From contig OZ242220.1 of the NCBI GenBank assembly GCA_965206745.1, forward strand, positions 512,001-576,000: DNA of 64,000 nt, in the 5' to 3' direction. The DNA is from Nitrosopumilus sp. GTDB lineage: Archaea; Thermoproteota; Nitrososphaeria; Nitrososphaerales; Nitrosopumilaceae. Every line of letters begins with the position of its first letter. Positions within the stretch are counted from its first letter, which is position 1. Made by a program: the position numbers and the translations under genes. The notes under the pieces are model-generated. The model saw only the letters and a program-made list of their open reading frames with translations, ran no database searches and was not told the origin of the DNA. Below, in pieces: positions 3,089-25,194 of this stretch.

Positions 3089-5484
3089 CTGAATCCCATC
3101 TGCTCCAAATGCTGATCAACTTTTACTGATAATGTTTTCACATCCTCATTTAATTCAGGTAATCTTATCTCATATCTTTCTGCAAGCTCTTTTATTCTTC
3201 CAATTAATGTATGGGAAATATATTCAATTTCTTCATCGATTGAATGATTTATTGAGGCTAGCCACTTATCCTGAATGATAATTTCCTTTATCTCTGGTTC
3301 GTTTAGTTGTTGATATCTCTCTAGCACATCTTTGTTTAGTTTTGATTCTGCTTCTTTGATATGTTTTTTTAGAATTTTTTCTTGTTCTGTTAGTTTTTGA
3401 TATTCGATTAATATTTTTAATTCATCGAAAAATTCATGATCGTTTTCTATCTCTTTGATTCTTTTTGGAATATCTTTTTTGTTTATTTTTTTATCATTTC
3501 TGACATCAATAAACAGATCCTCTTCACCTTGATTATCATCCATTTCCTGCATTTGTCGTTTAATATCGTTCAATTTTTTCTCTAATTCTTCAATTTGATT
3601 TTTTTCTTTTAGAAAATATTTGTCAATTACAACATCTTTTGGAATTAACTCACTATCCCAGTTTATTACCTTGTCTTTTTTATCTTTGATTTCATATATT
3701 ACAACATTCCACCCATTCATTGAAATAAGATATACATCATCCTGCATAGTTTCTTCCCAATATGTCATTAATTTTTGATAGATATTATACTCGTCAATAA
3801 GATCATCAATTTTTGAGAATTTTTCTAGTATGTCTTCAGAAATTATTGAGATAAACTCTTTTGGTTTGGAGCCTATATCCATCTCAATAAATAGAGAATA
3901 ATTGTTTACCTTCCAAGATTCAAATGATTTTTTGAATATTTCTAAGAATTTCTTAAACTCTGTATGTTCAAAGATTGTTGATTTGATTTCTGACTTGTCA
4001 ATATTGAGTTTTAGATATCCTTTTCTGAGTGTGGAGAAGAGTAATTTTCTAATATTTGGATAGACTTTCCAATATTTCTCAAGATCATCAATATCTTTTC
4101 TTGGGATTCCTCCTTTAAGATGTCCTTCGATATCTTGAATGTCTTCTTTTTCTTCGTTGTCAATATATCTGGGAATATTTAGATTATAATCATTTTTCTC
4201 ATCACAAATTTCAGAAATTGGAACTAGTCTTGAGAATTTTGGAATCTCTAGTTGTTTTGTAAATGCATCAACTATCTTGCGAATATTCTTTGCTTGCAAT
4301 CTGTTTTTATTTCCATCCTTGACAAATCCTTCCTTCGCATTAATCATAAAAATACCTTTTCTGCTCTGGGCATTTTCTTTATCTAAAACTATGATCGATG
4401 CAGGAATGCTAGTTCCATAAAACAGATTAGGCGGTAATCCGATTATTCCTTTGATAAATCCTCGATTGATTATGTTCTTTCTAATTTCTGCCTCCACATT
4501 TCCTCTAAATAATACGCCATGGGGTAGAATGATTGCACCCTTGCCAGTACTCTTTAGAGATTTTAAGACGTGTAATAGAAATGCATAATCTCCATTTTTC
4601 TTTGGAGGAATTCCATATTCAACAAATCTATCAAATTCATCATCAGTTTCGTTTATTCCATTGCTCCAAGATTTAAAAGAGAAAGGAGGATTTGAGACTA
4701 TCAAATTAAAAGTCTTGAGTTTGCTATTTTTTTTGAATAATGGATTTGCTATAGTGTTTCCTTGTTGAATATCTGCATCAATATTATTATGTATCCACAT
4801 GTTCATCATTGCCATTGCTTTTGTTGCAACATCGTTTTCTTGTCCGTAAATTGTAATTCCTTTTGGTGTTTCATGGGCTACTTTGAGAAGTAAAGAACCA
4901 GATCCTGCTGTGGGATCATATACAGTTTGATCTTTTCTTTTTATATTACTTGCACCAATAACTTTGGCAATTATTTGAGATACCTCAGAAGGAGTATAGA
5001 ACTGGCCTTTTGCTTTTCCAGATTCTGTTGCAAATTTTCTCATTAAATATTCATATGCGTCACCAAGCAAGTCATCTCCATCAGCCCTGTTTTTATTAAA
5101 ATTTAATAATTTACTTTGAAAAATAGATATAAGATTTGTAAGCTTGTCTACTTTTTCCTTTCCGGAACCAAGTTTGTCTGAATCATCAAAGTCTGCCTCA
5201 TCAATTATTCCACTTAGATCATTTTCTTCTGCAAGTTTTTTAATAATTTTATTCATTCCTTCACCAATTCCAGGTTTGCCCTTGAGTGCAATCATATCAT
5301 CAAAACCTCCACCTTTCGAAATAGTGATGGCAACATCTTTTTGGTTCTTGTACTTGTCAGAGATATATTTTACAAATAGAATTGATAGAATGTAATCTTT
5401 GTATTGAGAAGGATCCATACCTCCTCTAAATTCATCACAACTCTGCCAAAGTTGACTGTAAATTTCACTTTTTTTGATTGCCAT
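3082..5484 (-). CDS. hsdM: Type I R-M N6-adenine methyltransferase with long C-terminal extension
   Basis: GDAYEYL, GQFYTP, YDPTAGSGSLL (motif I), NPPF (motif IV), YNLNIPRYI. Confidence 0.96.
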   Translation of the reverse strand: MAIKKSEIYSQLWQSCDEFRGGMDPSQYKDYILSILFVKYISDKYKNQKDVAITISKGGGFDDMIALKGKPGIGEGMNKIIKKLAEENDLSGIIDEADFDDSDKLGSGKEKVDKLTNLISIFQSKLLNFNKNRADGDDLLGDAYEYLMRKFATESGKAKGQFYTPSEVSQIIAKVIGASNIKRKDQTVYDPTAGSGSLLLKVAHETPKGITIYGQENDVATKAMAMMNMWIHNNIDADIQQGNTIANPLFKKNSKLKTFNLIVSNPPFSFKSWSNGINETDDEFDRFVEYGIPPKKNGDYAFLLHVLKSLKSTGKGAIILPHGVLFRGNVEAEIRKNIINRGFIKGIIGLPPNLFYGTSIPASIIVLDKENAQSRKGIFMINAKEGFVKDGNKNRLQAKNIRKIVDAFTKQLEIPKFSRLVPISEICDEKNDYNLNIPRYIDNEEKEDIQDIEGHLKGGIPRKDIDDLEKYWKVYPNIRKLLFSTLRKGYLKLNIDKSEIKSTIFEHTEFKKFLEIFKKSFESWKVNNYSLFIEMDIGSKPKEFISIISEDILEKFSKIDDLIDEYNIYQKLMTYWEETMQDDVYLISMNGWNVVIYEIKDKKDKVINWDSELIPKDVVIDKYFLKEKNQIEELEKKLNDIKRQMQEMDDNQGEEDLFIDVRNDKKINKKDIPKRIKEIENDHEFFDELKILIEYQKLTEQEKILKKHIKEAESKLNKDVLERYQQLNEPEIKEIIIQDKWLASINHSIDEEIEYISHTLIGRIKELAERYEIRLPELNEDVKTLSVKVDQHLEQMGFRW

Positions 5485-5489
5485 TTAGA

Positions 5490-6431
5490 TCACTTTTGCT
5501 TTTTACTCTGATATATTTTTTCAATCAAAGGAATTGCTTTTGCAATGTCGTCAAAATTTTTTATTGAAGAGCGAAAATTTCCTATTCCATGATGCCCAAT
5601 GTTTGAAACATCTTTTACAAACTTGGAAGTTTCAAGTAGAGTCATGTCACTTGTGGAATAATTGAGAGTAATTTTGGTTTTCAGTGCTTCTAGTGTACAT
5701 ATTGAAGAACCACCATCTCGTAGATAGTAACCACCATAAATTTTCCTTTGTTTAAACTCTACATCTTCAAATATTTTTTCAATTGTTTTCTTTAACTCAC
5801 CCCACAATTTTTTTATCTCGTCAGTAGGATGCTGATTATGATATTTTCCTGTAAGGTATTCCTCCTCAGTGTATTCTGATAGTCTAATTCTTACTTTAGT
5901 TGATTTTGGAGAATTTGGACTTTGAATTTGAGAATCTCCCATTCGGTTTAGAGTAATTATGTTGTCTTGATATTTTTTTATCTCATAGAGCTCAATAGGC
6001 AGTCCTTGAAAACCACTTGCTCTTTTTTGATATTTTGTGTATTCTTGTGAAATGAAAATTACACGTGTTTCATCCCAGTTGATATCCTTCACATCTGATG
6101 TTTTGTTCATTTTCTTGTTATAGAGCAGAACAAGGTTTTCTTTTCTCTCATGTAGTAATTGATAGTAACTTACCCCTTGATCAATTAGAGAGTAATTTTT
6201 AATTTTTTTGTATTCTATTATGACAAATGATTTTTTTTCAGAATCAAATGCTATAGTGTCAGGTCTTAGATCCTTTATCTGAAATTCAGTCTCAATAAAC
6301 TCTAATTCTGGAAATATTGAATCTAGGTTTTTTTCAACCATGTTCTGAATTATTTCTTCCAAATCAAATGCCTCTTGATGACTTTCTACTAGATTGTTCT
6401 TTTTTGATTGAAAAATTCTCATCAGAATCAA
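5490..6431 (-). CDS. PD-(D/E)XK nuclease-like protein (NucS-like N-terminus, DUF5655-like C-terminus)
   Basis: LEEIIQ..RPDTIAFD..IIEYK..IDQGVSY and a C-terminal DVSNIGHHGIG motif; first gene of the R-M operon. Confidence 0.65.
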   Translation of the reverse strand: MILMRIFQSKKNNLVESHQEAFDLEEIIQNMVEKNLDSIFPELEFIETEFQIKDLRPDTIAFDSEKKSFVIIEYKKIKNYSLIDQGVSYYQLLHERKENLVLLYNKKMNKTSDVKDINWDETRVIFISQEYTKYQKRASGFQGLPIELYEIKKYQDNIITLNRMGDSQIQSPNSPKSTKVRIRLSEYTEEEYLTGKYHNQHPTDEIKKLWGELKKTIEKIFEDVEFKQRKIYGGYYLRDGGSSICTLEALKTKITLNYSTSDMTLLETSKFVKDVSNIGHHGIGNFRSSIKNFDDIAKAIPLIEKIYQSKKQK

Positions 6432-7069
6432 AAAAGATATCTATTGTCTCTTAGATAAAGGATCTTATGAAAATCACAATTGCCAGAAAAATTAATCTCA
6501 GTTTTGATGTTAAATAGTCTAAATATTTCGTATGAGATCGTTACTTAAAAAACTAGACATAAATATTTTCAACAATATTGATTCATCTTAACTAAAAGGG
6601 ATAGGTAACCTCATACAATATTTTGATGGAGAAAAATAATCGTATGCTAAGCAAGTAAGAAAAAGAATATCTCCAGTGTAATCTTGTTCATCAAAAAACT
6701 ATGAACATAAATTTATTTTATCAAAAAGAAGATAAAAACACAAGTAAACTAGATTGACGTCGACGATCTCTGATGAATATCTGACATCTTTCTTTATTAT
6801 ATCTGGATTACATGTGGCTGTAATCATCACAATCATGTGAGGGATACATTGCATACGAGACCCAGAGGTTTCTAGTGATCTCCACATGTATGGCATTTGG
6901 GCTGCAGGAATCATAATAATAGTAGTTGCAGGTTGTCAGATACTTTGTTTTTAGTTTTCTGGGATTAGTGTTAGACACAAATTACCATTAATACAAAACT
7001 TGTCTGTTATTGAAATCTGTAATTTTACAACCAAATCCAGCAATGTTTTTCATGAATGTGAAAAATCAA

Positions 7070-8248: not shown

Positions 8249-8255
8249 GTTGGAT

Positions 8256-8486
8256 TCATCTGCTATTTTGGATGATCAGCATGTTAAAGTCATGCATGTT
8301 GTCCTGTATTGATAACTCTACTGCCTCTTTCATATTCTCCATGATTTCCCCGTATGTTTGACCCTGTGAGAAAGCATGCAACTCATCGCAACTGCCTATA
8401 AAACCGCCGTCAATCTTATCGGGAGTTATGAGTATGGTGTATGTCTTTTTTTGTACTATTGAATCCATGATGTACCGTTTAATCAC
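8256..8486 (-). CDS. HicB-like antitoxin (RNase H-fold domain only)
   Basis: YTILI..GGFIGSCDEL..FSQGQTYGEIMENMKEAVEL matches the HicB N-terminal consensus. Confidence 0.75.
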   Translation of the reverse strand: MIKRYIMDSIVQKKTYTILITPDKIDGGFIGSCDELHAFSQGQTYGEIMENMKEAVELSIQDNMHDFNMLIIQNSR

Positions 8487-8571
8487 AAGGTGACAAAATA
8501 AAGTTTTATGATATATTTGGAGACCAATACGATAAAATATTCGAGGAACTGCATCAGATATTGATTAATTC

Positions 8572-9195
8572 ATGACTGAGTTTGATATTGATACAACTTT
8601 ACAGTCTCTATCCCAAATTCGCCCAATTTTTCACAATGAAGCAGATTTCCAATTTGCATTTGCATGGGAAATTCAAAAGCAATATTCAGATTACAACATT
8701 AGGTTAGAATACAAAGTCCCTACATTTGGTAATCGCTATACGGACATATGGATAAACGGCAAAAATCCTATTGCAATTGAATTAAAATACAAGCCAGTTT
8801 CAATGAATCTGCAGCATAATAAAGAGACATTTGAATTGAAAAATCAGGGTGCGGAAGATCTTGGCAGATACGATTTTCTAAAGGATGTTCAAAGGTTGGA
8901 AGAAATTATTATGAAATATCCTGAAACTAGCGCATATGCCATCATGATAACAAATGATAGTCTGTATTGGAGAAATCCGTCAAAACTCGATTCTATTGAT
9001 AAAGACTTTAAGATACATCAAGGTCGAAACATTCATGGCACCTTATCGTGGTCACCAAAGGTAGGAAAGGGCACTACAGAGAACAAGGATCCAATACAAA
9101 TTCATGGCAAATACTGCATGAATTGGCAAAGCTATTCTGACATTGATCAAGAATATGAAAAATTCAGAATGTTATGCTTGCAAATTAATTCATAA
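8572..9195 (+). CDS. Hypothetical protein, probable PD-(D/E)XK nuclease
   Basis: NEADFQ..LEY..YTDIW..AIELKY spacing typical of the restriction-endonuclease fold. Confidence 0.6.
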   Translation: MTEFDIDTTLQSLSQIRPIFHNEADFQFAFAWEIQKQYSDYNIRLEYKVPTFGNRYTDIWINGKNPIAIELKYKPVSMNLQHNKETFELKNQGAEDLGRYDFLKDVQRLEEIIMKYPETSAYAIMITNDSLYWRNPSKLDSIDKDFKIHQGRNIHGTLSWSPKVGKGTTENKDPIQIHGKYCMNWQSYSDIDQEYEKFRMLCLQINS

Positions 9196-9334
9196 TTTGA
9201 TACGCCAGTAAAAGCATAATAAAAAACACATATGTAAAAATCAAAAATTACTTGCGTCAATCCTGCAAAAATTTGATTCAATCTTGGCTATGATCCTTTT
9301 GGAAGATTCACTTTCTCAGACTCTAAATTATACA

Positions 9335-10255
9335 TTATGATTTTTCGTCTCTGTTGGACATTGCCACATTAAACTGCTTGAATGTATCTTCTGCCATGTC
9401 TCTGATCTTGTCCTGTAATAGCACGTCTCCGTCTAGAAACTCACTGGGATTCACTTTGATTGATATGACAGGATATTTCACACATCTGTCTCTCCCTGGT
9501 TCTAAAGAGACGTTGCCATGTTGATCTAAAACTACGTAACGCGGGTCACGCCGAGTAGGCATTTTTACTGCATCTTCAAACGCATTTTCTAGTTTTATAA
9601 CCAAGTTGCAATCTTGTTTAAAATAACGGTCATACCGTTTATTTCCATATCCTAAAGGTTCATACAAATTGACTGCAGCTACTCTGATACAATGAATATC
9701 CGAAATACTCCATATTCCATGTTTGGTTACAATATATGAGAGAGGATCAATAAATTGAGATTTTTCAGACATTGGAGCTATGCCTATTCCCTTTTTAGTA
9801 TAACCAAGAATGAATGGTTTGCTGTGTCTTGCTACTAATTGTTGTGTGGTAGAAAACGCATAGTCTAATTGCAATCTTCCTTCTGAGAGAAATCGTAAAG
9901 AACCAAATTCGATTATTCCGTTAACCATGCAATCATATATTCTTGGAACCATTTCATCAATGGTGTAATGTATGTATGCAACATTGTCCCAAAATTCTTT
10001 TTTTAACCTCGTTTCGATCTCTTGATCACTCATTGTGTCCTTCCAATTATCATAGATTTTTTGGGGACTCACCCCACATGCAAAGATATGGTGTGGTCTG
10101 TTTTTGGCCTGTTGTATTATGCAGATATTTCCATCTTCATCTTGGCCTATTTCCAATTTCTGATCCAATTCATTACACATCTTTGATGCATCTTCAAGCA
10201 ACAAACGAAATCTGGCATGATTCCATGATGAATCTATCTTGCCATATGATTTCAT
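9335..10255 (-). CDS. Hypothetical protein
   Basis: 306-aa ORF divergent from TBP paralog 1; no motif recognised. Confidence 0.6.
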   Translation of the reverse strand: MKSYGKIDSSWNHARFRLLLEDASKMCNELDQKLEIGQDEDGNICIIQQAKNRPHHIFACGVSPQKIYDNWKDTMSDQEIETRLKKEFWDNVAYIHYTIDEMVPRIYDCMVNGIIEFGSLRFLSEGRLQLDYAFSTTQQLVARHSKPFILGYTKKGIGIAPMSEKSQFIDPLSYIVTKHGIWSISDIHCIRVAAVNLYEPLGYGNKRYDRYFKQDCNLVIKLENAFEDAVKMPTRRDPRYVVLDQHGNVSLEPGRDRCVKYPVISIKVNPSEFLDGDVLLQDKIRDMAEDTFKQFNVAMSNRDEKS

Positions 10256-10331
10256 ATGATGGTATTTTTTAATATCTTATTAAATTTTTAGTAGAAAAAA
10301 ATCACAATTGAAAAATATGATCAGATAAAGG

Positions 10332-10931
10332 ATGATTCAAACAATGTTGCTTTTTTCAAAGTGTATTAAGGGTATAACATTCAATAAAAGAATGTCACTT
10401 TCAAGTTCAAAACTTAGATCAGAGATAAAAATTCAAAACACTGTAACCACGGCAGATCTCAAGCAGGAGATAAATCTGACATCTTTTAACAAACACAAAC
10501 ATCTTAGCTCAAATCTAGAACTATACAGATGTGGCTATGTTAAAGATGACACCATGACAGGCAGAGTTACCGTCTTTAGAACCGGAAAACTCATCTCAGT
10601 TGGAACAAAAAGTCCAGGGCAGGCAAAAAAAGAGCTAGCCAAAGCATGTAAGATACTACAGAAATACAAGATTGCAAAACCTGTTAAAATTACTCCACAA
10701 ACAAGAAACATTGTATCAAGATTTGACATGAAGAAAAAATTACCAATAGAAAAACTTGCAAGAACACTGCCAAAATCCATGTATGAGCCAGAACAGTTTC
10801 CTGGACTGATTTATAGAATTCAGGGCAGCTGTGTTGCCCTGATATTTGCATCAGGAAAAGGAGTCATTGCAGGAGCAAAGTCAATAGAGGAAACAAATGC
10901 GGCATTCTTTGATGTAAAATCACGGCTCTAG
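10332..10931 (+). CDS. tbp: TATA-box-binding protein paralog 1 (true start probably MSLSS, ~10392)
   Basis: Two TBP repeats: IQNTVTTADL..VFRTGKLISVGTKS and RNIVS..YEPEQFPGLIYR..LIFASGKGVIAGAKS. Confidence 0.88.
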   Translation: MIQTMLLFSKCIKGITFNKRMSLSSSKLRSEIKIQNTVTTADLKQEINLTSFNKHKHLSSNLELYRCGYVKDDTMTGRVTVFRTGKLISVGTKSPGQAKKELAKACKILQKYKIAKPVKITPQTRNIVSRFDMKKKLPIEKLARTLPKSMYEPEQFPGLIYRIQGSCVALIFASGKGVIAGAKSIEETNAAFFDVKSRL

Positions 10932-11011
10932 CATAAAATACAAAAATAAAACAACTAGAACCATATCCTAAAACTATGGCACAAAAATAGAAATTATGCA
11001 ACAAATATCCG

Positions 11012-11935
11012 TTGACTACCTATCCTACATCTAGAGCGACTATCTTGTTTGAGGAGTCAATAAAGTCAAAGTACACCAAAAAGAACTACACGTCACACCT
11101 TAACCAATTCCTGAGATTTGCAGATATGCATTCTGAGAACCAACTGCTGAAAATACCTCATATGGAACTGCAGTACAAGCTAGAAAATTACCTAATAGAG
11201 TTAAAACATACCACAAACCCCAATTCAATATCGTCAAGGTTTCAGGGGATAAAGCACTTTTGTATTATGAACGAGATCAACCTCAACTGGAATATCATAC
11301 ACAAGATGTTCCCGCAAAGACAGAAAACCCAGAGTCTGCGTTCGTACACTTGCAAGGAAATCAGAGAGTTGTTATCTTGTGCAAAAAGTCTGCGTGATAC
11401 AGCCTTGATTCATTTTTTGGCATCGACTGGTGCAAGAATAGGAGTGTTTGATAATGTACTGTCAATGAAACATCTCAGAAAAATATCACACGGTTGCAAT
11501 GCCGTCAAGGTCTATGCAGGACAAGTTGAGGAATATTGGGTTTTTCTTACACCTCAGGCCTCAAGGGCATTGAATGTTTATCACAAATATCGTAAGCAGC
11601 ATGGTGAGATGTTTTGTGAAGACACTCCAATCTTTGCTATAATGAGTGCATCCCATGGACAGCTGGGATGGAGTGGTGCAAGATCTGCAGTATACAGAAC
11701 AGTCTCAAGAAGCAACATAAGACAAGATAAACAAGATAGTAGATATGATGTGCAGGTGGACCACGGATTCAGAAAGAGATTCAACACTATTCTAAAACTG
11801 GATAATTCTGTAAACTATAACATTGCCGAAAAGCTAATGGGACACAAGAATGGACTTGATGGTGTATATCTGACTCCTACTCTAGATGAACTCTTTGTGG
11901 AATTTAGAAAAGTGATGCATAAAATTGAGGTTTAA
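11012..11935 (+). CDS. Tyrosine recombinase/integrase
   Basis: Catalytic residues intact: STGARIG (R), HGFRKRF (HxxR), LMGH, GVY (Tyr nucleophile). Confidence 0.92.
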   Translation: MTTYPTSRATILFEESIKSKYTKKNYTSHLNQFLRFADMHSENQLLKIPHMELQYKLENYLIELKHTTNPNSISSRFQGIKHFCIMNEINLNWNIIHKMFPQRQKTQSLRSYTCKEIRELLSCAKSLRDTALIHFLASTGARIGVFDNVLSMKHLRKISHGCNAVKVYAGQVEEYWVFLTPQASRALNVYHKYRKQHGEMFCEDTPIFAIMSASHGQLGWSGARSAVYRTVSRSNIRQDKQDSRYDVQVDHGFRKRFNTILKLDNSVNYNIAEKLMGHKNGLDGVYLTPTLDELFVEFRKVMHKIEV

Positions 11936-12044
11936 TCTTTTTTCTTTTAATTCAACCATTTATTGATATGGGACTATTTGAATCAAAAGTCCAAATATTC
12001 TTTCTCAAGAAAAGATATAATTTACAGATGAAATTATCTACAAA

Positions 12045-12878
12045 ATGGCAAAACTTATTTGTACTCTAAAAGAATTTACATATTTTATCGATCCAAGAGT
12101 AAGGAATAATGTTGCCACCATGACAAAACGATCAAAAAATCTCCTAGATTACAAATGTCAAAAATGCAATGAAAAAAAAGAATTAGATGCAGCCCATAAA
12201 CATGGGAGCAGCAGACCTGAGATTATTCGTAATGTTTTAAATAATTACAAAACAAATGATGATGAATATGAAATTGATGATTTGCAGAAAATAATCGATG
12301 AAATCAATGTAGCTCACACTCCCATTGAAGATCACTTTATATTTTTATGCAAAACATGTCACCGAGAATACGATTCATGGACACGGAATCTCGTCAACAC
12401 ACAACTTGAAGATGGCAATAGTAAAAAATCCTACAACATACAACCAAATAAATCACAAGAATCAAAGATACTCACAAATCTAGGTGATAATAACAATCCT
12501 GCTGAAATTTTATTCAAGGATGAGACCCGGAGTTGGAAATACAAGCTTGGTTGGACATCAATCCAAAATAGAAAAAATATCGAAGAACTAATTTCTAAAA
12601 TAGAAGCAAATTTTGATTGCTATCCGATTGCCCGCAATTCATGGTATTATTATAAACGAAATGACAACGACAAACAATTCTCAGCAATAAAAACCAACAT
12701 AAATGATTCAGAGATATGTTTTAGAATAGAACCTCTCTCTTTTGACATTAAGGATCCAAGAATAATTCATGGTAAGAGGTGGTTTTTTCCAGAAGGCAAA
12801 GAAAGAAAAATCAAGATCATCCCAGAAAACTATGAATTAATTTTGAAATGTTTGGATTATTCATACAAAATATCTTGA
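12045..12878 (+). CDS. HNH-type endonuclease with uncharacterised C-terminal domain
   Basis: CQKC..LDAAH..LCKTCHREYD is a Zn-binding HNH pattern. Confidence 0.62.
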   Translation: MAKLICTLKEFTYFIDPRVRNNVATMTKRSKNLLDYKCQKCNEKKELDAAHKHGSSRPEIIRNVLNNYKTNDDEYEIDDLQKIIDEINVAHTPIEDHFIFLCKTCHREYDSWTRNLVNTQLEDGNSKKSYNIQPNKSQESKILTNLGDNNNPAEILFKDETRSWKYKLGWTSIQNRKNIEELISKIEANFDCYPIARNSWYYYKRNDNDKQFSAIKTNINDSEICFRIEPLSFDIKDPRIIHGKRWFFPEGKERKIKIIPENYELILKCLDYSYKIS

Positions 12879-13041
12879 TGTATTATTTCAGATAGAATTA
12901 CCCAATTATCAATTTGAATAGAAGATGAGGTATCTAGTGGATAAATTCAGATTTGTAAAAAATCCTCTAAAAACGAAAATATTGATTAATATTTCCATGT
13001 TGTAGTTGGTTTTTGATCCTAATAGAGAATTATGCTTGTAT

Positions 13042-14340
13042 CTATGTCTCTATAACTTGACCGAACTGTAACTTTATAGTTACAGTTAATCTCATGCATA
13101 AAATTATGATGATTATGAATTGTATACAATTTATTGCGTCAACTCCTGACAGGATTGACGCAATTTTTTGTTGTTCTGGTAGATATTTTGGAACGAGTAT
13201 TAACATTTTTTTAATTTCAGTCTTACTAATTTCTAGAAAAGTTGTTCCATATGATAATCGGATTAGGGTATTTTTATTGTTACATAATAAATAAAAAATG
13301 AATAAATTATCAAATTTATTATTACAAATTATATTTTGAAAACCTTGATTGGTAGATATTGGGTTGGCAGTTATTGCACATTCTCCAATAGTTGCTCTAG
13401 AAGTGAGTAAAATTGTACCTTTTGGTAATAATTTAGCTGAACTATCTTTTAATCCTTTTTCTGTAATCTTTCTTTCAGTATTATTAATGTAAGTTGTTTG
13501 TAACTTTGTAATATCTGTTGGAACCGCCCACAATATATTCCCATTCCAGTATTCTTTATTTTTAGAATTTGGTGTGCCACCACTGACTATTTCTCCTATA
13601 TTATCAAGCTTTGTTATTTTCCATTCTTCTGGAATTTCAATCTCTTTTCTAAATAATCCTTTAACTTTCTTAAACTTTGTATGTCTAATTCCTCTAGCCA
13701 ATAATTCTTGCATCAATCCTTTCTTTAATCGTCCAGCTTTATCCACAACTTGTTGTGTATTTTGTATCAATGCGTCAACATTAGAAAGAATTGATGCAAT
13801 TTTTTGTTGTTCGTTGATAAGAGGTAATAAAATTGGCATAATGGAATATTGTTTTGCATTAACATTGGGTTGAACTCCCCATGTTTGTATCGATAATAAC
13901 CATGCCCAATAAAATTTTGAATGTGTTAAATAAAAAAGAAATTTAGAATCAAGATTTTTATTGTCAGGTTTAAAACGAATTAGATATCCTGCAAATGCAC
14001 ATGTTTCATTACTTTCTTGATGAAGATATGTTTTGCCAACTGTTGCGCCAGTTCTTGCAAATAGAATATCTCCTTCATATAAAATATAATCTTGAGCATC
14101 TTCTTCGGATATTGATTTCCATTCTGAATATCTTAATGTTCCATTATCATTTAGATCTGTGATACGTATGTATCGAGGTAATTTTAGATTTTTTTCTATT
14201 GCTGACACAGATACACCATATTCAGCTTTACCAATACAATTTTCAGATAATGTTGTTTTCTTCCATTCTTCTGGAATCTCCATCACTTTTCCAAAAATCC
14301 ATTTTAGTAACTTGTAACCTTGTCTTGGTTTTCTAGCCAT
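13042..14340 (-). CDS. hsdS: Type I specificity subunit HsdS-A, with a non-homologous C-terminus (putative donor allele)
   Basis: Likely start MARKPRQG at 14340; two TRDs. After KIASILSGVDA the sequence runs into INCIQFIIIII.. instead of the conserved ..LKKGLMQKLLTG helix. Confidence 0.9.
   Translation of the reverse strand: MARKPRQGYKLLKWIFGKVMEIPEEWKKTTLSENCIGKAEYGVSVSAIEKNLKLPRYIRITDLNDNGTLRYSEWKSISEEDAQDYILYEGDILFARTGATVGKTYLHQESNETCAFAGYLIRFKPDNKNLDSKFLFYLTHSKFYWAWLLSIQTWGVQPNVNAKQYSIMPILLPLINEQQKIASILSNVDALIQNTQQVVDKAGRLKKGLMQELLARGIRHTKFKKVKGLFRKEIEIPEEWKITKLDNIGEIVSGGTPNSKNKEYWNGNILWAVPTDITKLQTTYINNTERKITEKGLKDSSAKLLPKGTILLTSRATIGECAITANPISTNQGFQNIICNNKFDNLFIFYLLCNNKNTLIRLSYGTTFLEISKTEIKKMLILVPKYLPEQQKIASILSGVDAINCIQFIIIIILCMRLTVTIKLQFGQVIET
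13135..13167 (-). repeat. Distal inverted repeat, left copy (33 bp; partner 24921-24953)
   Basis: Reverse complement AAAATTGCGTCAATCCTGTCAGGAGTTGACGCA matches 24921-24953 at 32/33 positions. Confidence 0.92.
13699..13812 (-). repeat. Central inverted repeat, left copy (114 bp; partner 24288-24401)
   Basis: Base-by-base comparison gives 114/114 identity to the reverse complement of 24288-24401, with mismatches immediately outside. Confidence 0.96.
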
Positions 14341-14347
14341 AATTGAT

Positions 14348-14890
14348 TTATTTAAGCAACCCATTTAATCTTTGAATTATCTCAAAAGAGGCAGTGTTTA
14401 ACTCATTTGCAGATTTTGCACCTATGATTACAATTTTTCCTGATGCAAAAACAAGACAGCTACAACTATCCAATCCTTTTACTATCATACCTGGAAATGT
14501 TTCAGGATCATACACTACACCATCCATCTTTGTTGATATGATGTCAATCGGTATTGCTTTACCTGTTGTAACTGTAGCTACAATATTTCTAATCTTTGTT
14601 GATAATGTTACATTTTTTATCATGTTGTGTTCTAACAGATGGAATTTAGATTGGTTTAACTGCTCTTTTGCCCTTTTAATTGACTTTGCGCCAACTGATA
14701 TCATCTTACCACTTAGAAAAATAGTAACACGACCATCCATTTCAGGTATTTTGACATATCCGCATCTACCACCATATATTGCCTCATCATAAATACAACA
14801 AGGGATTTTTACAAATTTTAATATGTCTACTTTTTGCTTTAAATCTGCAGTACATACAACATTGTGAATTTTGGGTTTTAGATTCAACAA
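14348..14890 (-). CDS. tbp: TATA-box-binding protein paralog 2 (probable TTG start at 14890 or 14887)
   Basis: IHNVVCTADL..IFLSGKMISVGAKS and IRNIVAT..YDPETFPGMIVK..VFASGKIVIIGAKS; ends 7 bp before the hsdS-A start. Confidence 0.88.
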   Translation of the reverse strand: MLNLKPKIHNVVCTADLKQKVDILKFVKIPCCIYDEAIYGGRCGYVKIPEMDGRVTIFLSGKMISVGAKSIKRAKEQLNQSKFHLLEHNMIKNVTLSTKIRNIVATVTTGKAIPIDIISTKMDGVVYDPETFPGMIVKGLDSCSCLVFASGKIVIIGAKSANELNTASFEIIQRLNGLLK

Positions 14891-14954
14891 AACAGAACAC
14901 TTTGCGGCTCTTAAATATCCCTCATTTTTGATAAAATATTTAGATGATGTAAAT
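14891..14954. promoter_or_regulatory. Putative divergent promoter between tbp2-hsdS-A and hsdR
   Basis: 64-bp gap with TATA-like boxes about 25 bp from each start: ATATTTAAG on the minus strand (14910-14918) and TTTGATAAAA on the plus strand (14927-14936). Confidence 0.4.
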
Positions 14955-17900
14955 ATGTCAAAACTATTGGATTTTAATGTAGGTACAGGTGATGAGGCAG
15001 AACAATCAGAGATCCCAGCACTAGAACAGCTAGTCAAAATGGGATATCAATATATTTCAAAAAATGACCTAAAAAGAGAACGAAGAAAAACAACCGAAGT
15101 CTTATTGTATGACAGATTAAATAATGCAATTAAAAGAATCAATCCTCAACTAGATTCAGATGGAATCGATGATGCAGTAAATCAGATCAAAGAAGATACA
15201 TTTCCATTTACATATGATACAATGAATACTAATGAAAAGATTCGAGCTAAATTAATTGGATTGTCTCAAACAGGAGGACTGGAACCAATAACAGTTGATC
15301 AACATGATAAAAACAGGACCATAAAAAAGACTGTAAAACTTTTTGATTTTGATGATATAGATAACAATGATTTTATTGTTACAAATCAATTTGAATTGCA
15401 GGGACTCAAAAATCTAATATATCCCGACATTGTTTTATTTGTAAATGGCATTCCATTAGTTATCATAGAATGCAAATCACCATTTAGAAGAAATTGGTTA
15501 GTTGATGCAGTAGAAAAAGAAAATTTCAATAAATATCGTTCTAGAGGAGCAGGTTATGAAAAACTAATGTTCTACAATCACATTCTAGTTGCAACTTGTG
15601 GCACACAAGCAAGACATGGAACAATATCGTCAGATTTAAATCATTTTCAAAATAGCAGATGGTCAAGCGCATATCCATTAACTGAAAAAGAGATTGAAGA
15701 AAAATTTGGAAAAAACAGAGAACAAGAGATTTTAATTGCAGGAATGCTTGACAAATCCCATCTTTTGGATTTACTAAAAAATTATGTACTTTATCAAACA
15801 GTTAACAACAAGCGAATCAAAATTATTGCAAAACATCAACAATATAGAGCAGTCAGAAAATGTGTTGAAAAAATTAAAACTGCAAACACCAGACAAGGAG
15901 GAATTATCTGGCACACTCAGGGTTCAGGAAAATCCTTTACAATGCTGTGGGTTGCAAGGCAGGCAATAGAATATGATAATTTGCCTCTAGTCATAGTCAC
16001 AGACAGGCGTCAATTAGATAAACAAATCCACACTACTTTTACACAAGTTGGATTCCCAAATCCAATAAAGGCATACAAATCAGCACAACTTGCAGATTTT
16101 ATAAAATCACCAAAGGGTAAAACCATGATGACTACAATTCAAAAATTTGAGGAAATTAGTGAATCTACAGATGAGAAAATTATCGTTCTAGTGGATGAGG
16201 CACATCGGTCACAGTTTGGAATCGATGCAGGTGCAATGGATAAAGCAATTCCAAATGGGATTTACTTTGGGTTTTCTGGAACTCCAATTGATAACAAAGA
16301 TAAATCCGTATATCGAGTATTTGGTGATCTAATAGACAAATATGGATTTGAAGAATCAAAAGCAGATGGTGCTACCATCCCGATAAGATATGTTGGACGA
16401 TTGCCAAATCTCTTTGTCGAAGATGATGAATCTATCGATATCTTATTTGATAGAATTATTGGTTCTGAACCAAACATGACGCCAGAACTAAAAGAACAGC
16501 TAAAAAAAGAATATGTGAATAAAGATAAAATTATACAAGCTCCTCAAAGGATTAAAAAAATTGCATTGGATATTGTAGAGCATTACACTAATAACATTCA
16601 AGATAATGGCTACAAGGCAATGATTGTGGCATCATCACAAGAATCTGCAGTACTATACAAAGAAGAATTAGATCGCCTCAATGCTCCGCCATCAAAAATC
16701 ATCATGGATCAAAGGATTGGCAAGACAGGAAAAGATGGAACAAGTTGGGATGTCCATTATCTAACCGATTCTCAAAAAAGACAAATAGAAGATTCTTTCA
16801 AAAATCCAGATAATGAGATTAAAATTTTGATAGTTGTTGATATGTTGCTAGTTGGATTTGATGCACCGATAGTCAAAGTGATGTATCTTGATAAATCCCT
16901 CAAAGAGCATGCACTACTTCAGGCAATTGCACGTGTAAACAGGTCATATGATGAATGGAAAGAAGAGGGATTGATTGTAGATTATTATGGCATAACTAAG
17001 AATATTCAAAAAGCATTAGAAACTTTTGATCCAAAAGATATCAAAGGAGCTTGGGAATCTGATGACTCGCAACTAGATATACTAAAAATATATCATACAC
17101 AAACAATGAATTATCTCAAAGGATTAGATAAAAACAAACCGGAACAAATCATAGAAGCATTTGAATCCATTGATAAAAGAGAGGCATTTGAGGATTATTT
17201 TAAAAAATTTTCCAAAGTTCTAAATTCACAATTATATAAAACGGAATCATCTCAATACATTTCTGATTTTAAGGAATTGAGTAAGATCAGAGCATTGTTG
17301 AGAAACTGGTATGAGAATCCAAAAAATTCTACTCGAAAATATGCTGTGATGATTCAGAAATTAATTGATGATGCAATAGGAGCAACTGGTGTTTCTGAAC
17401 TTGTAAAACCAATGGAAATAACATATGATAATTTCTTAGCATATGTCTTAAAATTTAAATCTTCAAGAGCTAGAACTGCACTTATTAAAAATAAAGCAGA
17501 GCAAGTGATTATGGAAAATTACTCCCATAATCCAGTATATTATGAAAAATTGCGGGAATTACTTAAACGATTAATCTCAGAAGAAAAACAAAGAAGAGAA
17601 GAGAATGCGGAGTATGTTGATTCAACCATGGAGGAAAAATTCAAGGAAATTTATAATAAAGCATTAGATATAGAAAAAGAAAGAAAAAATCTTGGGTTTG
17701 ATAGAGACATAGAATTTTCAATATATGGATTAATTAAAGAATATAAAAAAGATAAGAATAAATCAATTGAAATTACAAAGAGATTATCTGAAAAAATATT
17801 ACCTGAGACAGAAATTATTGAATGGCATCATAAATTAAGCATCAAACGAAAGATTGAAAAAATCACATATGATATTCTAGATTCATTTGGTATTGTGGAT

Positions 17901-17960
17901 GAAGATATATCAAAATTATCGGAAAAGATTTTAACATTGCTCAATTGTGATAACTTGTGA
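14955..17960 (+). CDS. hsdR: Type I restriction endonuclease subunit R
   Basis: YPDIVLFVNGIPLVIIECK nuclease motif, WHTQGSGKS, DEAH, QAIARVNR. ATG at 14955 preferred because it avoids overlap with tbp2. Confidence 0.96.
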   Translation: MSKLLDFNVGTGDEAEQSEIPALEQLVKMGYQYISKNDLKRERRKTTEVLLYDRLNNAIKRINPQLDSDGIDDAVNQIKEDTFPFTYDTMNTNEKIRAKLIGLSQTGGLEPITVDQHDKNRTIKKTVKLFDFDDIDNNDFIVTNQFELQGLKNLIYPDIVLFVNGIPLVIIECKSPFRRNWLVDAVEKENFNKYRSRGAGYEKLMFYNHILVATCGTQARHGTISSDLNHFQNSRWSSAYPLTEKEIEEKFGKNREQEILIAGMLDKSHLLDLLKNYVLYQTVNNKRIKIIAKHQQYRAVRKCVEKIKTANTRQGGIIWHTQGSGKSFTMLWVARQAIEYDNLPLVIVTDRRQLDKQIHTTFTQVGFPNPIKAYKSAQLADFIKSPKGKTMMTTIQKFEEISESTDEKIIVLVDEAHRSQFGIDAGAMDKAIPNGIYFGFSGTPIDNKDKSVYRVFGDLIDKYGFEESKADGATIPIRYVGRLPNLFVEDDESIDILFDRIIGSEPNMTPELKEQLKKEYVNKDKIIQAPQRIKKIALDIVEHYTNNIQDNGYKAMIVASSQESAVLYKEELDRLNAPPSKIIMDQRIGKTGKDGTSWDVHYLTDSQKRQIEDSFKNPDNEIKILIVVDMLLVGFDAPIVKVMYLDKSLKEHALLQAIARVNRSYDEWKEEGLIVDYYGITKNIQKALETFDPKDIKGAWESDDSQLDILKIYHTQTMNYLKGLDKNKPEQIIEAFESIDKREAFEDYFKKFSKVLNSQLYKTESSQYISDFKELSKIRALLRNWYENPKNSTRKYAVMIQKLIDDAIGATGVSELVKPMEITYDNFLAYVLKFKSSRARTALIKNKAEQVIMENYSHNPVYYEKLRELLKRLISEEKQRREENAEYVDSTMEEKFKEIYNKALDIEKERKNLGFDRDIEFSIYGLIKEYKKDKNKSIEITKRLSEKILPETEIIEWHHKLSIKRKIEKITYDILDSFGIVDEDISKLSEKILTLLNCDNL

Positions 17961-18652
17961 TTAAAAAAATAAAATATCTTGATTCTGTGATAGAATATGA
18001 CTTAATCAAAAGTAAACGTAGAAAGACATCACAAATCACAATTACACCTGATAAAATAACGATAAGAACACCAGATACGAAATCTTCAGCAGATGTAGAA
18101 AAAATTGTACAAAAAAAGGCACAATGGATATTTAAAAAACAATTACATTTTATTGGACAAAAAAAACCAGTTTTTTCATTAAAATCGCTTTTACTAATTT
18201 ACGGCAAAAATTACAAAATCAAGATTATTCCCAACAATACGGAAAAAACATGTCTGAATGGAGATGTTATAGAATTTCACATATCACAAAAGAAATACAA
18301 TACAAAGCAGATCAAAGCACAGTATGATGCATATTTGAGGAAAAAAGCGTACGTATTGTTTCCAAAATGGACCAAAGTATTAGCAGAAAAAATTGATGTG
18401 CATCCAACCAAAATCAACATCAAAGAGCTCCGAGGTAGATGGGGAAGTGCTACTGCTACAGGTGCGATCAATCTTAATTCCAATCTGATAAAGGCTCCAA
18501 AAAAGATCATCAGATATGTTATTTTTCATGAATTATGTCATTTTAAAATCAAAGAACATTCACATCATTTTTGGAATCTAATGGGACAACATATGCCTGA
18601 ATATAAGGAATCAATAAAATGGTTAGAAGCAAATGGAATCAAAATCAGTTAA
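17957..18652 (+). CDS. YgjP/DUF45 (M48-like) zinc metallopeptidase-family protein
   Basis: RWGS, HELCH (HExxH), HSHHFW; GTGA overlap with hsdR. This family commonly follows type I hsdR. Confidence 0.88.
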   Translation: MIKKIKYLDSVIEYDLIKSKRRKTSQITITPDKITIRTPDTKSSADVEKIVQKKAQWIFKKQLHFIGQKKPVFSLKSLLLIYGKNYKIKIIPNNTEKTCLNGDVIEFHISQKKYNTKQIKAQYDAYLRKKAYVLFPKWTKVLAEKIDVHPTKINIKELRGRWGSATATGAINLNSNLIKAPKKIIRYVIFHELCHFKIKEHSHHFWNLMGQHMPEYKESIKWLEANGIKIS

Positions 18653-18679
18653 GATGTATTTTTGATGCTAAAATAGTAT

Positions 18680-19790
18680 GATATCGTCTATTCAAAAACC
18701 AAATACAAAAATGTATTCCACAAAGAAAAAGATAACAAGGTTGTTCAGAAAATGCTTACAATGTACATGGTATTGAAAGAAAAAAATGACATATGAAAAG
18801 ACAGATCATATACTTATGCATTCTTCTGATGGAGTATCCATATGGGTACAAAGAGGATCGTCTTTATGCCTTCGTAGAGGAGAGATCTTCCATGAATTAA
18901 TAGGTCTCCATAGATATCATATACAAAACTTAACAAGATAATGCACCCTAACGAATTTTTGTTCATCAGTTTATCACACATCAAATCTTGACGGAAATAA
19001 ATATGCGTGATTATTTTTACCAGTAATCCAAACACATGTTTTTTAATCATCAGTTAATCATATTGTTAGTTATTGATAATATGAGTTAAAAAAATTACAG
19101 TTCTTTTATTCAATGGCTTCAAGCTACCTGTCAGATTACAAACGATCTTGACCTGCAAATCATATCTCATCACACCACACTACAAAAGACAGCGGCAAGA
19201 ATAAATGAAAAGATACTATACATGGTAATAAAACGATTCATCAATCATGTATATGCAAGAGAAATATTTGGAATTGATATATTTGGAATTGAGACAGGCC
19301 GTGCAATAAAACATTATTCATGGAGGGTTCAAAATCAGATATATATTTATCAAGGCATATCTCTATGTTCTGACATATCAACCCAGATTGTCTGCACTAC
19401 AATTGTAGATAATCACCAGTATCTCATGACGTCAAACATGTTTCTTCATCGCTATCAAAAATACATCCTCACAAATTAGTAAAGCCAATGATACCTGACA
19501 AGGGAATAGGATTCAGAATTAATCCACAAATTGATACTCAGTAACAGCATACATTCTGTAATTCCTGTAAGAAGCAGGACAAACAGGGTCAGCAAGGTAA
19601 AAAAGACATGCAGAAAAGAGATGTATCGAAAATTTGAAAAAGAGACATATTTTCAGAGAAATTAAAAAGAGTTGTCTTTTCGGTAATAAAGAGAATGTTT
19701 GATCAAAGATTCTTTCATGTAATGAATCTTAGATAGTAAAAGAAACACCACATAAAATATTGGTCTATAACTGTCACAGAATATACCTGA
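18680..19790 (+). pseudogene. Degraded IS4/IS5-type DDE transposase
   Basis: Frameshifted fragments: GIDIFGIETGRAIKHYSWR (IDSTG-like), HDVKH, DKG/DSE, IHSVIPVR, YFQRN*..FSVIKRMF. Limits approximate. Confidence 0.65.
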
Positions 19791-19866
19791 TCGTAAATTT
19801 AGAGATGATTTCTATATTGTCGATCTAACTAAATCTATATTACTTGAAGACTATCATAGTTATTAG

Positions 19867-21375: not shown

Positions 21376-21599
21376 TCAATGATATCTGCTCTATAAATTA
21401 GGAAATATTTTGTACAATTTCAGATAAGACATCAAATGATATCTTTGTTGCATGTAATTGTGTAGTTAATCCTACAACGTTTTTCCATAGGATTCATTTG
21501 CAGGTAAATCAGTTGACGTATGTTGTGGTTTGTTACAGGAAAGAATATTGAGCTGTTGTGTTATGTGTCGTATTTCAGTTGTTATAATCCATGCATCCA

Positions 21600-25052: not shown

Positions 25053-25194
25053 CTTTGGGAATGTGCCTAGAATGGAAAGATCATCAAAATTCAGAACAAG
25101 ACTGATTCCTATGCCTAGAATGCCAGTTGTATCCTTGGGGGAGCCACAAAACGGGTATTAGGTATAAAATACCCCTTTCCTCACTTGACGATTA

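Follow-up and report, generated by a model that had tools for sequence, protein, structure and literature searches.

An asymmetric TBP subfamily associated with defence genes in Nitrosopumilus and related archaea

Extra TATA-binding protein (TBP) paralogs, TFIIB genes on thaumarchaeal conjugative elements and TBP-fold proteins in bacterial conflict systems are already known. Multiple paralogs of TBP and of transcription factor B (TFB) are alternative general factors, e.g., in haloarchaea, with a presumed role in promoter selection; the haloarchaeal paralogs are chromosomal or megaplasmid regulators of physiology. We know of no haloarchaeal paralog with a remodelled first lobe or with a described link to a restriction-modification (R-M) or defence cassette. 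The TFIIB homologs on thaumarchaeal integrative-conjugative elements are located next to ParB (Krupovic et al. 2019, PMC6563490, main text). Bacterial TOTE/TALON systems combine a TBP-fold protein with TPR-CSD/OB proteins, YprA helicases and RNase H-like effectors (PMC12458937, available text, citing Aravind et al. 2022), and regulators of bacterial defence cassettes include the C proteins (PMC6765115), BrxR/WYL (PMC9122601) and RptR (PMC12255303), likewise as described in the available portions of these papers. The present analysis concerns two TBP genes, TBP1 and TBP2, in a 64-kb window (the whole stretch of DNA that was analysed, positions 512,001–576,000 of contig OZ242220.1) from the 1.86-Mb genome of the archaeon Nitrosopumilus sp. 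Both genes encode asymmetric TBPs with a remodelled first lobe, and they belong to a subfamily that is found beside R-M and other defence genes. TBP1 and TBP2 are read here, tentatively, as members of an accessory, horizontally moving archaeal TBP subfamily, i.e., a cassette-borne variant TBP that quite possibly controls transcription of the defence genes.

The two genes and their immediate neighbours are as follows.

10392–10931, + strand: TBP1, asymmetric TBP paralog of the TBP1 type, 179 aa; Pfam TBP; the open reading frame (ORF) is open from ATG 10332
11012–11935, + strand: Int, tyrosine recombinase; Pfam Phage_integrase 1e-05 and NCBIfam XerA-like 1.2e-15, both below cut-off
13042–14340, − strand: hsdS-A, specificity subunit; Pfam Methylase_S 3.8e-45; ATG at 14340
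14348–14890, − strand: TBP2, asymmetric TBP paralog of the TBP2 type, 180 aa, TTG start; Pfam TBP
14891–14954: 64-nt intergenic region between the divergent TBP2 and hsdR, with AT-rich TATA-like stretches
14955–17960, + strand: hsdR, type I restriction subunit; Pfam SWI2_SNF2 2e-65, HSDR_N 5e-31, T1R_D3-like

ORFs and Pfam confirm both TBP genes at the places given in the original prediction, which was made from the letters alone. It had put TBP1 80 bp upstream of a co-oriented recombinase, and the TBP1 stop at 10931 is followed by the Int ORF start at 11012. It had put TBP2 7 bp upstream of hsdS-A and divergent from hsdR; the TBP2 stop is at 14348 next to the hsdS-A ATG at 14340, and 64 nt separate its TTG at 14890 from the divergent hsdR ATG at 14955. 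This intergenic region probably acts as a promoter. The start of TBP1 is most likely ATG 10392 (179 aa) rather than 10332; the TBP1 homologs listed are mostly 179–181 aa, and the printed ones begin in register with ATG 10392. The database copy of the TBP2 protein is likewise 180 aa.

Both proteins match the Pfam TBP family (PF00352) in two stretches each, with E values of 2.5e-35 (120.6 bits) for TBP1 and 1.8e-30 (105 bits) for TBP2 against a cut-off of 22.9 bits. The aa sequence identity between them is 43% over 169 residues (BLASTP, E 4e-43). AlphaFold (AF2) models built on family alignments have a mean predicted local distance difference test score (pLDDT) of 94.6 for TBP1 and 95.0 for TBP2. 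The best Foldseek match is 1mp9_A, a solved archaeal TBP, with template modelling (TM) scores of 0.88 and 0.89, respectively; the other solved TBPs listed score lower. By Pfam and these high-confidence models TBP1 and TBP2 are full two-lobe TBPs.

Comparison of residues in 120 TBP1-type, 115 TBP2-type and 80 canonical TBPs shows that the lobe-1 motif Y-x-C-G-Y-[VI]-K...M-x-G replaces the canonical FPGLxFR in both asymmetric types. Y45, C47 and Y49 are present in 100% of the 235 asymmetric sequences, G48 and K51 in 98–99% (96–100% when G57 is included), and M55 in 100% of the TBP1 type and 95% of the TBP2 type. The canonical TBPs have F (100%), V/I, F/L/Y, R (100%) and K/R/Q at columns 45, 47, 48, 49 and 51, respectively. 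There is also a two-residue insert in the asymmetric lobe 1 that canonical TBPs do not have (the gap is placed by MAFFT only), and the Thr of strand S5, invariant in canonical TBPs, is Val or Ile in the asymmetric types (T to V). A shared motif RCGYVK..M.G had been read in the two proteins beforehand; it is real and stricter than stated, except that the R varies (the TBP1 type has R in 59% and A in 30% of sequences, and the TBP2 type has R in 81%). All 240 database homologs of TBP1 and TBP2 are of the asymmetric kind.

The asymmetry is also seen in the overall identities. TBP1 and the canonical TBPs of its own genome are 24–26% identical in lobe 1 and 42–45% in lobe 2; the values for TBP2 are 31–34% and 31–32%. 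Lobe-to-lobe internal identity is 23% in TBP1 and 32% in TBP2, and 37–47% in the canonical TBPs of the genome.

Lobe 2 keeps the canonical second repeat, as had been noted (YEPEQFPG in TBP1, YDPETFPG in TBP2), and reads Y-[ED]-P-[ED]-x-F-P-G across the family. This motif contains an acidic pair, which is E132 and E134 in TBP1 and D and E in TBP2. At position 132, 99% of the TBP1 type have E, whereas the TBP2 type has D (45%) or E (40%). At position 134 the TBP1 type has E (88%) or D (11%), and the TBP2 type has E (77%) or D (13%). The two lobe-2 glutamates, C.L3.2 and C.L3.4 in the nomenclature of Ravarani et al., are TFIIB/TFB contacts (PMC7221094, available text). Among the saddle Phe residues F62, F136 and F152 are kept in 100% of sequences, i.e., three of the four of the canonical set, and the first lobe-1 Phe aligns with Tyr (100%). 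Both Asn-x-Val pairs of strand S1 (N16, V18 and N106, V108) are mostly kept, and the fixed changes are Y45, C47, Y49 and V70. In structures of yeast and plant TBP with DNA, each lobe has two DNA-kinking Phe residues and a conserved Arg in strand S3. The canonical invariant lobe-1 Arg aligns with Tyr (100%) in the asymmetric types, and the equivalent lobe-2 position is R or K. The kept saddle, lobe-2 stirrup, TFB contacts and three of four Phe residues point to a protein that is still on DNA and still recruits TFB.

Y45, C47 and Y49 alternate along strand S3 (residues 47–50 are a strand by DSSP in the model) and should face the DNA by analogy with the canonical pattern of TBP-DNA contacts. Together with the T to V change in S5, this suggests a changed DNA preference for the downstream half of the box and not a loss of binding. 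As a separate observation, contigs of three sequencing runs match only positions 10779–10811 of TBP1, a 33-nt stretch that codes for MYEPEQFPGLI, and continue into letters that, read by eye, look like the coding sequence of a canonical TBP. If so, the lobe-2 stirrup would have nearly the same DNA sequence in TBP1 and in a canonical TBP gene.

Three canonical TBPs are encoded elsewhere in the genome, one of them beside a TFB gene. In a tree of 161 rows the 80 asymmetric TBPs form one clan apart from 80 canonical ones, with an SH-like approximate likelihood ratio test (SH-aLRT) support of 99. Its stem measures 1.02 changes per site, and the TBP1 type is a sub-clan with a support of 96. This separate clan agrees with the original prediction of one distinct subfamily. 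When rooted on crenarchaeal TBPs the clan sits on a long stem and joins a long-branched sixth TBP-like gene of the genome, with weak support (51). The sixth gene (L011 6827–7330, C1:384826–385329; L-numbers, L011 and L092–L216, are labels of genomic loci compared with the window) encodes a degenerate protein of 167 aa with a Pfam TBP match of 2e-12 and has a very long tree branch (3.43). Its neighbours are a TraG/VirB4-like ATPase gene on one side and a TrbL/VirB6-like gene on the other, in a region that resembles a conjugative element.

The distribution of the asymmetric TBP is patchy, and it is an accessory and not a core gene. It is present in 2 of 60 other genomes of the family sample (27 genera), in 11 of 150 other species of the genus sample and in 17 of 400 other genomes of the class sample, where it is found in 8 of 81 genera counting its own genome. 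A lobe-1 query of the phylum sample finds the wider asymmetric family in 3 of 400 other genomes. Ten of the 11 genomes of the genus that have the gene are 1.9–2.8 Mb and one is an incomplete 1.2-Mb assembly. The many close database homologs of TBP1 had raised the idea of a conserved core gene, which the family and genus searches rule out.

Pattern scans of genome and metagenome contigs show at least three and at least five close relatives, the matches being dominated by canonical TBPs through the shared MYEPEQFP. The closest named relatives of TBP1 among the matches listed are from metagenome-assembled genomes of 'Nitrosopumilus sp.', and scans of viral contigs with single-protein patterns found no relative of TBP1 or TBP2. 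A profile search of 1.84 billion representatives gives 270 clusters at E ≤ 1e-30, canonical TBPs included. Only 32 of 146 newly listed representatives have C-G-Y. In a printed sample of the others (P0251–P0337) lobe 1 is related, in most cases as Y-GGR[VA]AY-K, and lobe 2 is canonical; thus the pair in the window belongs to a wider family of asymmetric TBPs. Two Y-GGR[VA]AY-K members are placed in genomes, both in other families of the phylum. One (L215 2024–2551) is part of an hsdR-hsdS-hsdM-TBP operon, and the other (L216 9924–10454) is beside an Eco57I-type methylase and a PLD-SNF2 helicase.

The genes around asymmetric TBPs were mapped in 32 loci besides the window, by tblastn of the window proteins and Pfam (L215 and L216 by Pfam only); three further loci with the same maps as L172, L177 and L188 were left uncounted. 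R-M genes are present in 23 of the 32. These are mostly type I systems (L092, L094, L095, L173, L175–L179, L183–L186, L209–L211, L213, L215). L212 has a D12 methylase with an EcoRV-like nuclease, and L174 and L216 have an Eco57I/MmeI-type methylase with a PLD-SNF2 helicase, the latter locus in another family. There is a Type ISP enzyme in L187 and a lone N6_N4 methylase in L181. L172 and L180 have only a recombinase of the Int clade. In L214 the TBP gene is 476 nt upstream of a Cas6-Cas7-Cas5-Cas3-Cas4-Cas1 operon, and in L189 it is beside a PDC-S18 homolog, amid ribosomal-protein genes.

A uniform test, tblastn with the Int, hsdS, hsdM and hsdR proteins of the window at E ≤ 1e-6, is positive for 20 of 30 asymmetric-TBP loci (15/24 plus 5/6) and for none of 152 canonical-TBP loci (1.70 Mb in total, 78 loci of at least 10 kb). 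In the genome itself about 4.3% of positions are within 10 kb of such a match. The original prediction had named clustering with ordinary secondary TBPs in core loci, without enrichment, as the result that would speak against it; a separate clan and a strong enrichment beside R-M and defence genes were found instead. In L187, halves of a TBP1-type gene at 6663–6926 and 13139–13380 (query residues 5–87 and 88–170), both with stops, flank the gene of a 1376-aa Type ISP R-M enzyme and a Type_ISP_C fragment. It looks as if this TBP gene was split between its lobes by insertion of a cassette.

The TBP gene is frequently found directly next to an hsd gene, and all orientations occur. Tandem arrangements are TBP2 and hsdS-A in the window (7 nt), TBP and hsdS in L185 (24 nt), TBP-hsdS-Int in L178 and hsdS-TBP in L176. 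Divergent pairs are TBP2 and hsdR in the window and those in L173 and L210; convergent ones are found in L092, L094, L095, L186 and L211. Operon coupling is closest in L209 and L215. In L209 (hsdM-hsdS-TBP-hsdR-YgjP) the TBP gene starts 11 nt after hsdS, and its stop overlaps the hsdR start in an ATGA. In L215 (hsdR-hsdS-hsdM-TBP) its start overlaps the hsdM end. L194 is an orthologous R-M cassette without a TBP gene, with hsdS and hsdR back to back on opposite strands, 125 nt apart. The TBP gene is thus an optional add-on, as regulators are.

The upstream regions (110 nt) of 22 TBP genes show, by eye, ordinary TATA-like boxes about 25–35 nt before the starts. A 20-nt upstream stretch, ATGAGGGATATTTAAGAGCC, is common to TBP2 of the window and L184, and the blastn homology between the two upstream of TBP2 extends to position 14926 (36 nt). 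DNA-level homology between loci is otherwise limited to coding regions, the only other exception being TBP1-Int in L172.

Both genes are part of a low G+C stretch, positions 1 to approximately 25,100 of the window, which has a G+C content of 0.27–0.36 as compared to 0.39–0.48 over most of the remaining window. By ORFs, Pfam and PADLOC it is dense in defence genes. It opens with a first type I R-M system, which is adjoined by a PDC-S18 homolog and followed by a tRNA-Cys gene, a histone gene and a TatD gene. The order is next orf76, orf207, orf306, TBP1, Int and orf277, and then hsdS-A, TBP2, hsdR, a YgjP-like gene, hsdM, a TIR gene and hsdS-B. The features not given above are listed here.

3–5484: first type I R-M system, with hsdR, hsdS and hsdM
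5490–6431, − strand: PDC-S18 homolog, 313 aa; PADLOC candidate defence family PDC-S18, 1e-76; adjoins the first R-M system
8256–8486, − strand: orf76, small PHD/HicB-like gene, 76 aa; Pfam PHD_like 0.0026, weak
17957–18652, + strand: YgjP-like metallopeptidase gene; Pfam YgjP-like 3.6e-49
19867–21375, + strand: hsdM, type I methyltransferase subunit; Pfam N6_Mtase 8.5e-103, HsdM_N 1e-25
23179–23742, + strand: TIR-domain gene; Pfam TIR_2 2.3e-18; PADLOC PDC-S66 2.4e-10 and ThsB-like matches
23739–25052, + strand: hsdS-B, complete specificity subunit, inverted relative to hsdS-A; Pfam Methylase_S 4.8e-42; full C-terminal conserved region
13699–13812: left arm of a perfect 114-bp inverted repeat, in the central conserved region of hsdS-A
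24288–24401: right arm of the same repeat, in the central conserved region of hsdS-B

The YgjP-like gene travels with the hsdR family of the window, following hsdR in L185, L186, L209 and L210. PDC-S18 homologs adjoin the asymmetric TBP in L189 and are near asymmetric TBPs in L094 and L185. The end of the TIR gene overlaps the start of hsdS-B by 4 nt, and the TIR gene lies inside the candidate invertible segment described below; a TIR gene is present in L213 too. Compared with positions 8249–25194 of the window, the related locus L208 has the same flanking genes around a shorter island: orf212, a Sua5-like gene, orf173, orf256 and orf161 on one side and the TatD and histone genes on the other. 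The island of L208 contains an interrupted Int, one hsdS and no TBP. Since the same flanks enclose a different island, the site is a hot spot for exchangeable defence cassettes.

The Int clade, with 58–82% identity, is found in about 27 places in the genus. It is present in 10 of the 30 TBP loci tested by tblastn (L172, L173, L176–L178, L180, L184–L186, L212). Eighteen Int-clade loci are without an asymmetric TBP and 11 of them have hsdS or hsdM genes; thus Int is an hsdS-linked recombinase independent of the presence of TBP, and the obligate co-occurrence expected of a recombinase accessory or directionality factor is not seen. In nine of the 18 TBP-free loci a homolog of orf76 is adjacent to Int, in most of them upstream of it and co-oriented; L184 and L185 have one as well (the loci with orf76 are L184, L185, L191, L194, L195, L199–L203 and L207). 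The product of orf76 may be the usual helper or regulator of the recombinase.

Phase-variable type I R-M loci of bacteria have been described as 'epigenetic invertons' (PMC7672463, available text). The window resembles them in having two inverted hsdS genes, a perfect repeat and a nearby tyrosine recombinase. The difference is the TBP gene inside the segment; none is so described in the available text of that paper. The 114-bp repeat is the longest exact inverted match found by the script used, and its arms bracket TBP2, hsdR, the YgjP-like gene, hsdM and the TIR gene. A 24-bp exact repeat (13135–13158 and 24930–24953) also joins the two hsdS genes. hsdS-A loses its conserved C-terminus exactly at this 24-bp repeat, and unrelated residues after ASILSGVDA replace the conserved helix. 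By sequence, these hsdS repeats and the nearby recombinase are the apparent anatomy of a phase-variable type I R-M system in an archaeon.

Because the inverted repeats join both hsdS genes, TBP2 lies inside a segment that could invert. The original prediction of TBP2 in an invertible segment is upheld as to the bracketing repeat, but an inversion is not seen in the run contigs: contigs of four runs on positions 9000–25500 report no strand-changing joint. The contigs of X1 and X2, the two runs that contain the locus, end at the hsdS repeats (approximately 13135–13179, 13728–13811, 14119 and 24317–24372). The contigs of run X4 extend from 9000 to approximately 11900, covering TBP1 and Int with many differences; there is a loose end at 12835, and depth is low or absent across most of the R-M segment. 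Among the runs listed, no RNA run covers positions 10300–15000, which speaks neither for nor against expression of the genes. Inversion of the segment is plausible from the repeats. A 43-nt stretch of hsdS is repeated at 13135–13177, 13771–13812, 24287–24329 and 24911–24953; it starts with the palindromic arms TGCGTCAA...TTGACGCA. A weaker fifth copy (9242–9282, 73% complementary) lies between orf207 and orf306, outside any hsdS, and the stretch is 87–94% conserved in L185 and L186. These repeated sites may be the core sites of the recombinase.

If TBP1 and TBP2 are cassette-borne transcription factors, the kept saddle and TFB-recruiting lobe-2 stirrup would nucleate a pre-initiation complex with the TFB and RNA polymerase of the host. 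The remodelled lobe-1 strand and stirrup (motif, two-residue insert, S5 T to V) would change the DNA accepted by the downstream half of the saddle. The cassette would in this way bring its own promoter-recognition factor, which would determine how strongly, when or in which direction the adjacent defence genes are transcribed, i.e., hsdS and hsdR for TBP2 and the recombinase for TBP1. Its function would be like that of the bacterial R-M controller (C) proteins, BrxR and RptR, built instead from a general transcription factor. The basis for this reading is an optional gene with its own TATA-like box that accompanies unrelated defence types, within or divergent from their operons.

Several points weigh against the reading. 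All ten NCBIfam TBP models score below their curated cut-offs (best 115.6 bits for TBP1 and 94.5 for TBP2 against 181), and neither protein qualifies by score as a housekeeping archaeal TBP (PRK00394 models). The Arg and Phe changes to Tyr could have weakened the binding of lobe 1 to DNA instead of redirecting it. No special motif common to the family was seen by eye in the 110 nt upstream of the 22 TBP genes. A dedicated TFB partner is not evident, as no TFIIB-family match is found among the locus neighbours scanned against Pfam and the six TFB genes listed for the genome all lie elsewhere. The tight translational coupling in hsd operons would be as natural for a structural subunit as for a regulator. 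Three loci have no defence gene: in L190 the TBP is between triosephosphate isomerase and family-B DNA polymerase genes, in L182 (a 7.9-kb contig) only an EVE-domain gene is a neighbour, and in L188 a TBP fragment is beside a D5-type primase; L093 (2.4 kb) and L096 (1.2 kb) are too short to judge. The loci are also not independent, since related genomes share modules by descent or transfer, and L176 and L177 are apparent near-copies from one genome.

One alternative is that the asymmetric TBP is not a regulator and instead is a subunit of the defence machinery that senses or bends DNA (or a DNA-RNA hybrid), an explanation that appears somewhat unlikely. It would account for the ATGA overlap with hsdR in L209, the overlap with hsdM in L215 and the 7-nt gap to hsdS-A in the window, for the association with several unrelated defence types and for the invariant new surface on lobe 1. 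TBP proteins are proposed as sensors or benders in TOTE/TALON systems (PMC12458937), and the TBP-like N-domain of RNase HIII binds DNA-RNA hybrids (PMC3710099), both according to the available text. However, orthologous R-M cassettes are complete in gene content without a TBP (L194 and the first R-M system of the window, 3–5484), partners that vary by locus (type I, II, IIG, ISP, Cas) argue against one fixed interface, and a pure sensor would not need the conserved TFB contacts of lobe 2. The Pfam-scanned neighbours do not include the TOTE/TALON combination of TPR-CSD/OB protein with an effector or YprA helicase (L188 and L190 do encode TPR proteins, but not next to the TBP), and no PADLOC model matches TBP1 or TBP2. 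The kept TFB stirrup would also serve a decoy or inhibitor that binds TATA or TFB in dead-end or mis-oriented complexes and shuts off viral or host transcription, for defence or addiction. Loss of the canonical lobe-1 stirrup and of the invariant Arg, the location in a defence island and the failure to find a cassette-specific promoter motif would all agree with this. We regard it as quite unlikely; the lobe-1 changes are fixed and not degenerate (Y45, C47 and Y49, 100%, n = 235), which fits a gained contact better than a loss, and a general inhibitor would be costly if it were constitutively co-transcribed with hsdS or hsdR.

The original prediction also allowed an architectural cofactor of the tyrosine recombinase, which would bend DNA at an hsdS recombination or attachment site. 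TBP bends DNA sharply, and IHF, HU and Fis are DNA-bending cofactors of bacterial recombinases. TBP1-type genes are directly upstream of Int and co-oriented with it in the window (80 nt), L172, L173 and L212, L178 has the order TBP-hsdS-Int, and the DNA homology between the window and L172 is unbroken from TBP1 through Int. TBP2-type genes flank hsdS at the candidate invertible loci (window, L185, L186). This explanation is nevertheless weakened by the counts given above, with Int in only 10 of 30 TBP loci (within the stretch fetched) and 18 Int loci, 11 with hsdS or hsdM, that have no TBP. The type II, IIG, ISP and Cas loci lack an hsdS shufflon that could be inverted, the place upstream of Int is occupied in TBP-free loci by orf76, a helper of a more usual type, and conserved TFB contacts would be unnecessary. 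A cofactor role is therefore very unlikely, and the other option of the original prediction, a transcription factor, appears to fit better in view of the kept TFB contacts and the siting in R-M operons with or without a recombinase. The least probable explanation, hardly to be expected, is that these are hitch-hiking or decaying TBP duplicates with no present role. There are fragments and interrupted copies (L187, L188, L180, 53-aa pieces in L176 and L177, and L214 with a stop), but most copies are intact and of constant length (179–185 aa), and 235 sequences that are only about 40% identical overall keep the invariant motif residues. In addition, the models fold with a pLDDT of about 95, and the link to defence genes recurs across families and classes.

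A more specific form of the transcription-factor reading, itself unlikely, is that the private TBP reads a non-canonical and possibly methylation-sensitive promoter half-site. This would provide an orthogonal channel that delays or gates the restriction genes after transfer. If true, such a channel could bias the direction of shared divergent promoters and would be an archaeal counterpart of the C-protein switch, and the wider Y-GGR[VA]AY-K family would be a general class of archaeal defence-island TBPs.

The association implies more than one point of interest. It suggests that defence cassettes carry their own transcription factor. Regulation of anti-virus systems in archaea is almost unknown, and it is an open question how a new archaeal host survives the arrival of a mobile R-M cassette; a TBP subfamily linked to defence would be a concrete and testable regulator. 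It would be the first case found of a basal promoter-recognition factor that is specialised for defence genes and moves with them. The asymmetry of the TBP, with one lobe keeping the TFB contacts and the other having a new invariant surface, is a natural experiment that bears on the evolution of promoter polarity and specificity. In practical terms, C-G-Y-[VI]-K in lobe 1 offers an easy sequence marker by which to find defence islands in ammonia-oxidising archaea.

A literature search for a prior description found only the bacterial TOTE/TALON TBPs and the TFIIB genes on thaumarchaeal conjugative elements. In the texts that it covered, no group of archaeal TBPs is described that has a remodelled first lobe and accompanies R-M, Cas or other defence genes. 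The main text of PMC6563490 has no occurrence of 'TBP' or 'TATA', and that of a survey of archaeal immune systems (PMC12988326) has no TBP, TATA or 'transcription factor'.

The asymmetric TBPs are like the canonical archaeal TBP (PF00352; 1mp9, 1ais, 2z8u) in their two-lobe saddle (TM 0.80–0.89, about 180 aa) and in the lobe-2 stirrup Y-E-P-E-Q-F-P-G with its two acidic TFB contacts. They differ from it by Y-x-C-G-Y-[VI]-K in place of F-P-G-L-x-F-R in lobe 1, by the insert and by the S5 T to V change, and in being accessory genes of defence cassettes, a setting found for none of the 152 canonical loci. Like the haloarchaeal paralogs, they are extra TBP copies beside housekeeping ones. The TFIIB of thaumarchaeal elements is similar in being a general initiation factor on mobile DNA of the same archaeal group, there a TFB and here a TBP. 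The sixth, degenerate TBP-like gene of the genome does lie in a region that resembles such a conjugative element.

As in the TOTE/TALON systems, a TBP-fold protein recurs in anti-invader clusters. Unlike these bacterial systems, the host is an archaeon, the TFB contacts are kept, and the partners are R-M, Cas or PDC-S18 genes; bacteria, to our knowledge, have no TFB. In R-M controller systems the C gene overlaps the R gene, and the ATGA overlap of TBP and hsdR in L209 resembles this arrangement. The resemblance to C proteins is positional only, as the fold is that of TBP and not helix-turn-helix (HTH) and no C-box-like motif was identified. More generally, the asymmetric TBP gene is like the genes of C proteins, BrxR and RptR, as far as the available text describes them, in being small, optional and located in, or divergent from, R-M or defence operons of many systems. 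Those bacterial regulators are HTH or WYL proteins that act at sigma-factor promoters, whereas the protein found here is a paralog of the basal promoter-recognition factor itself.

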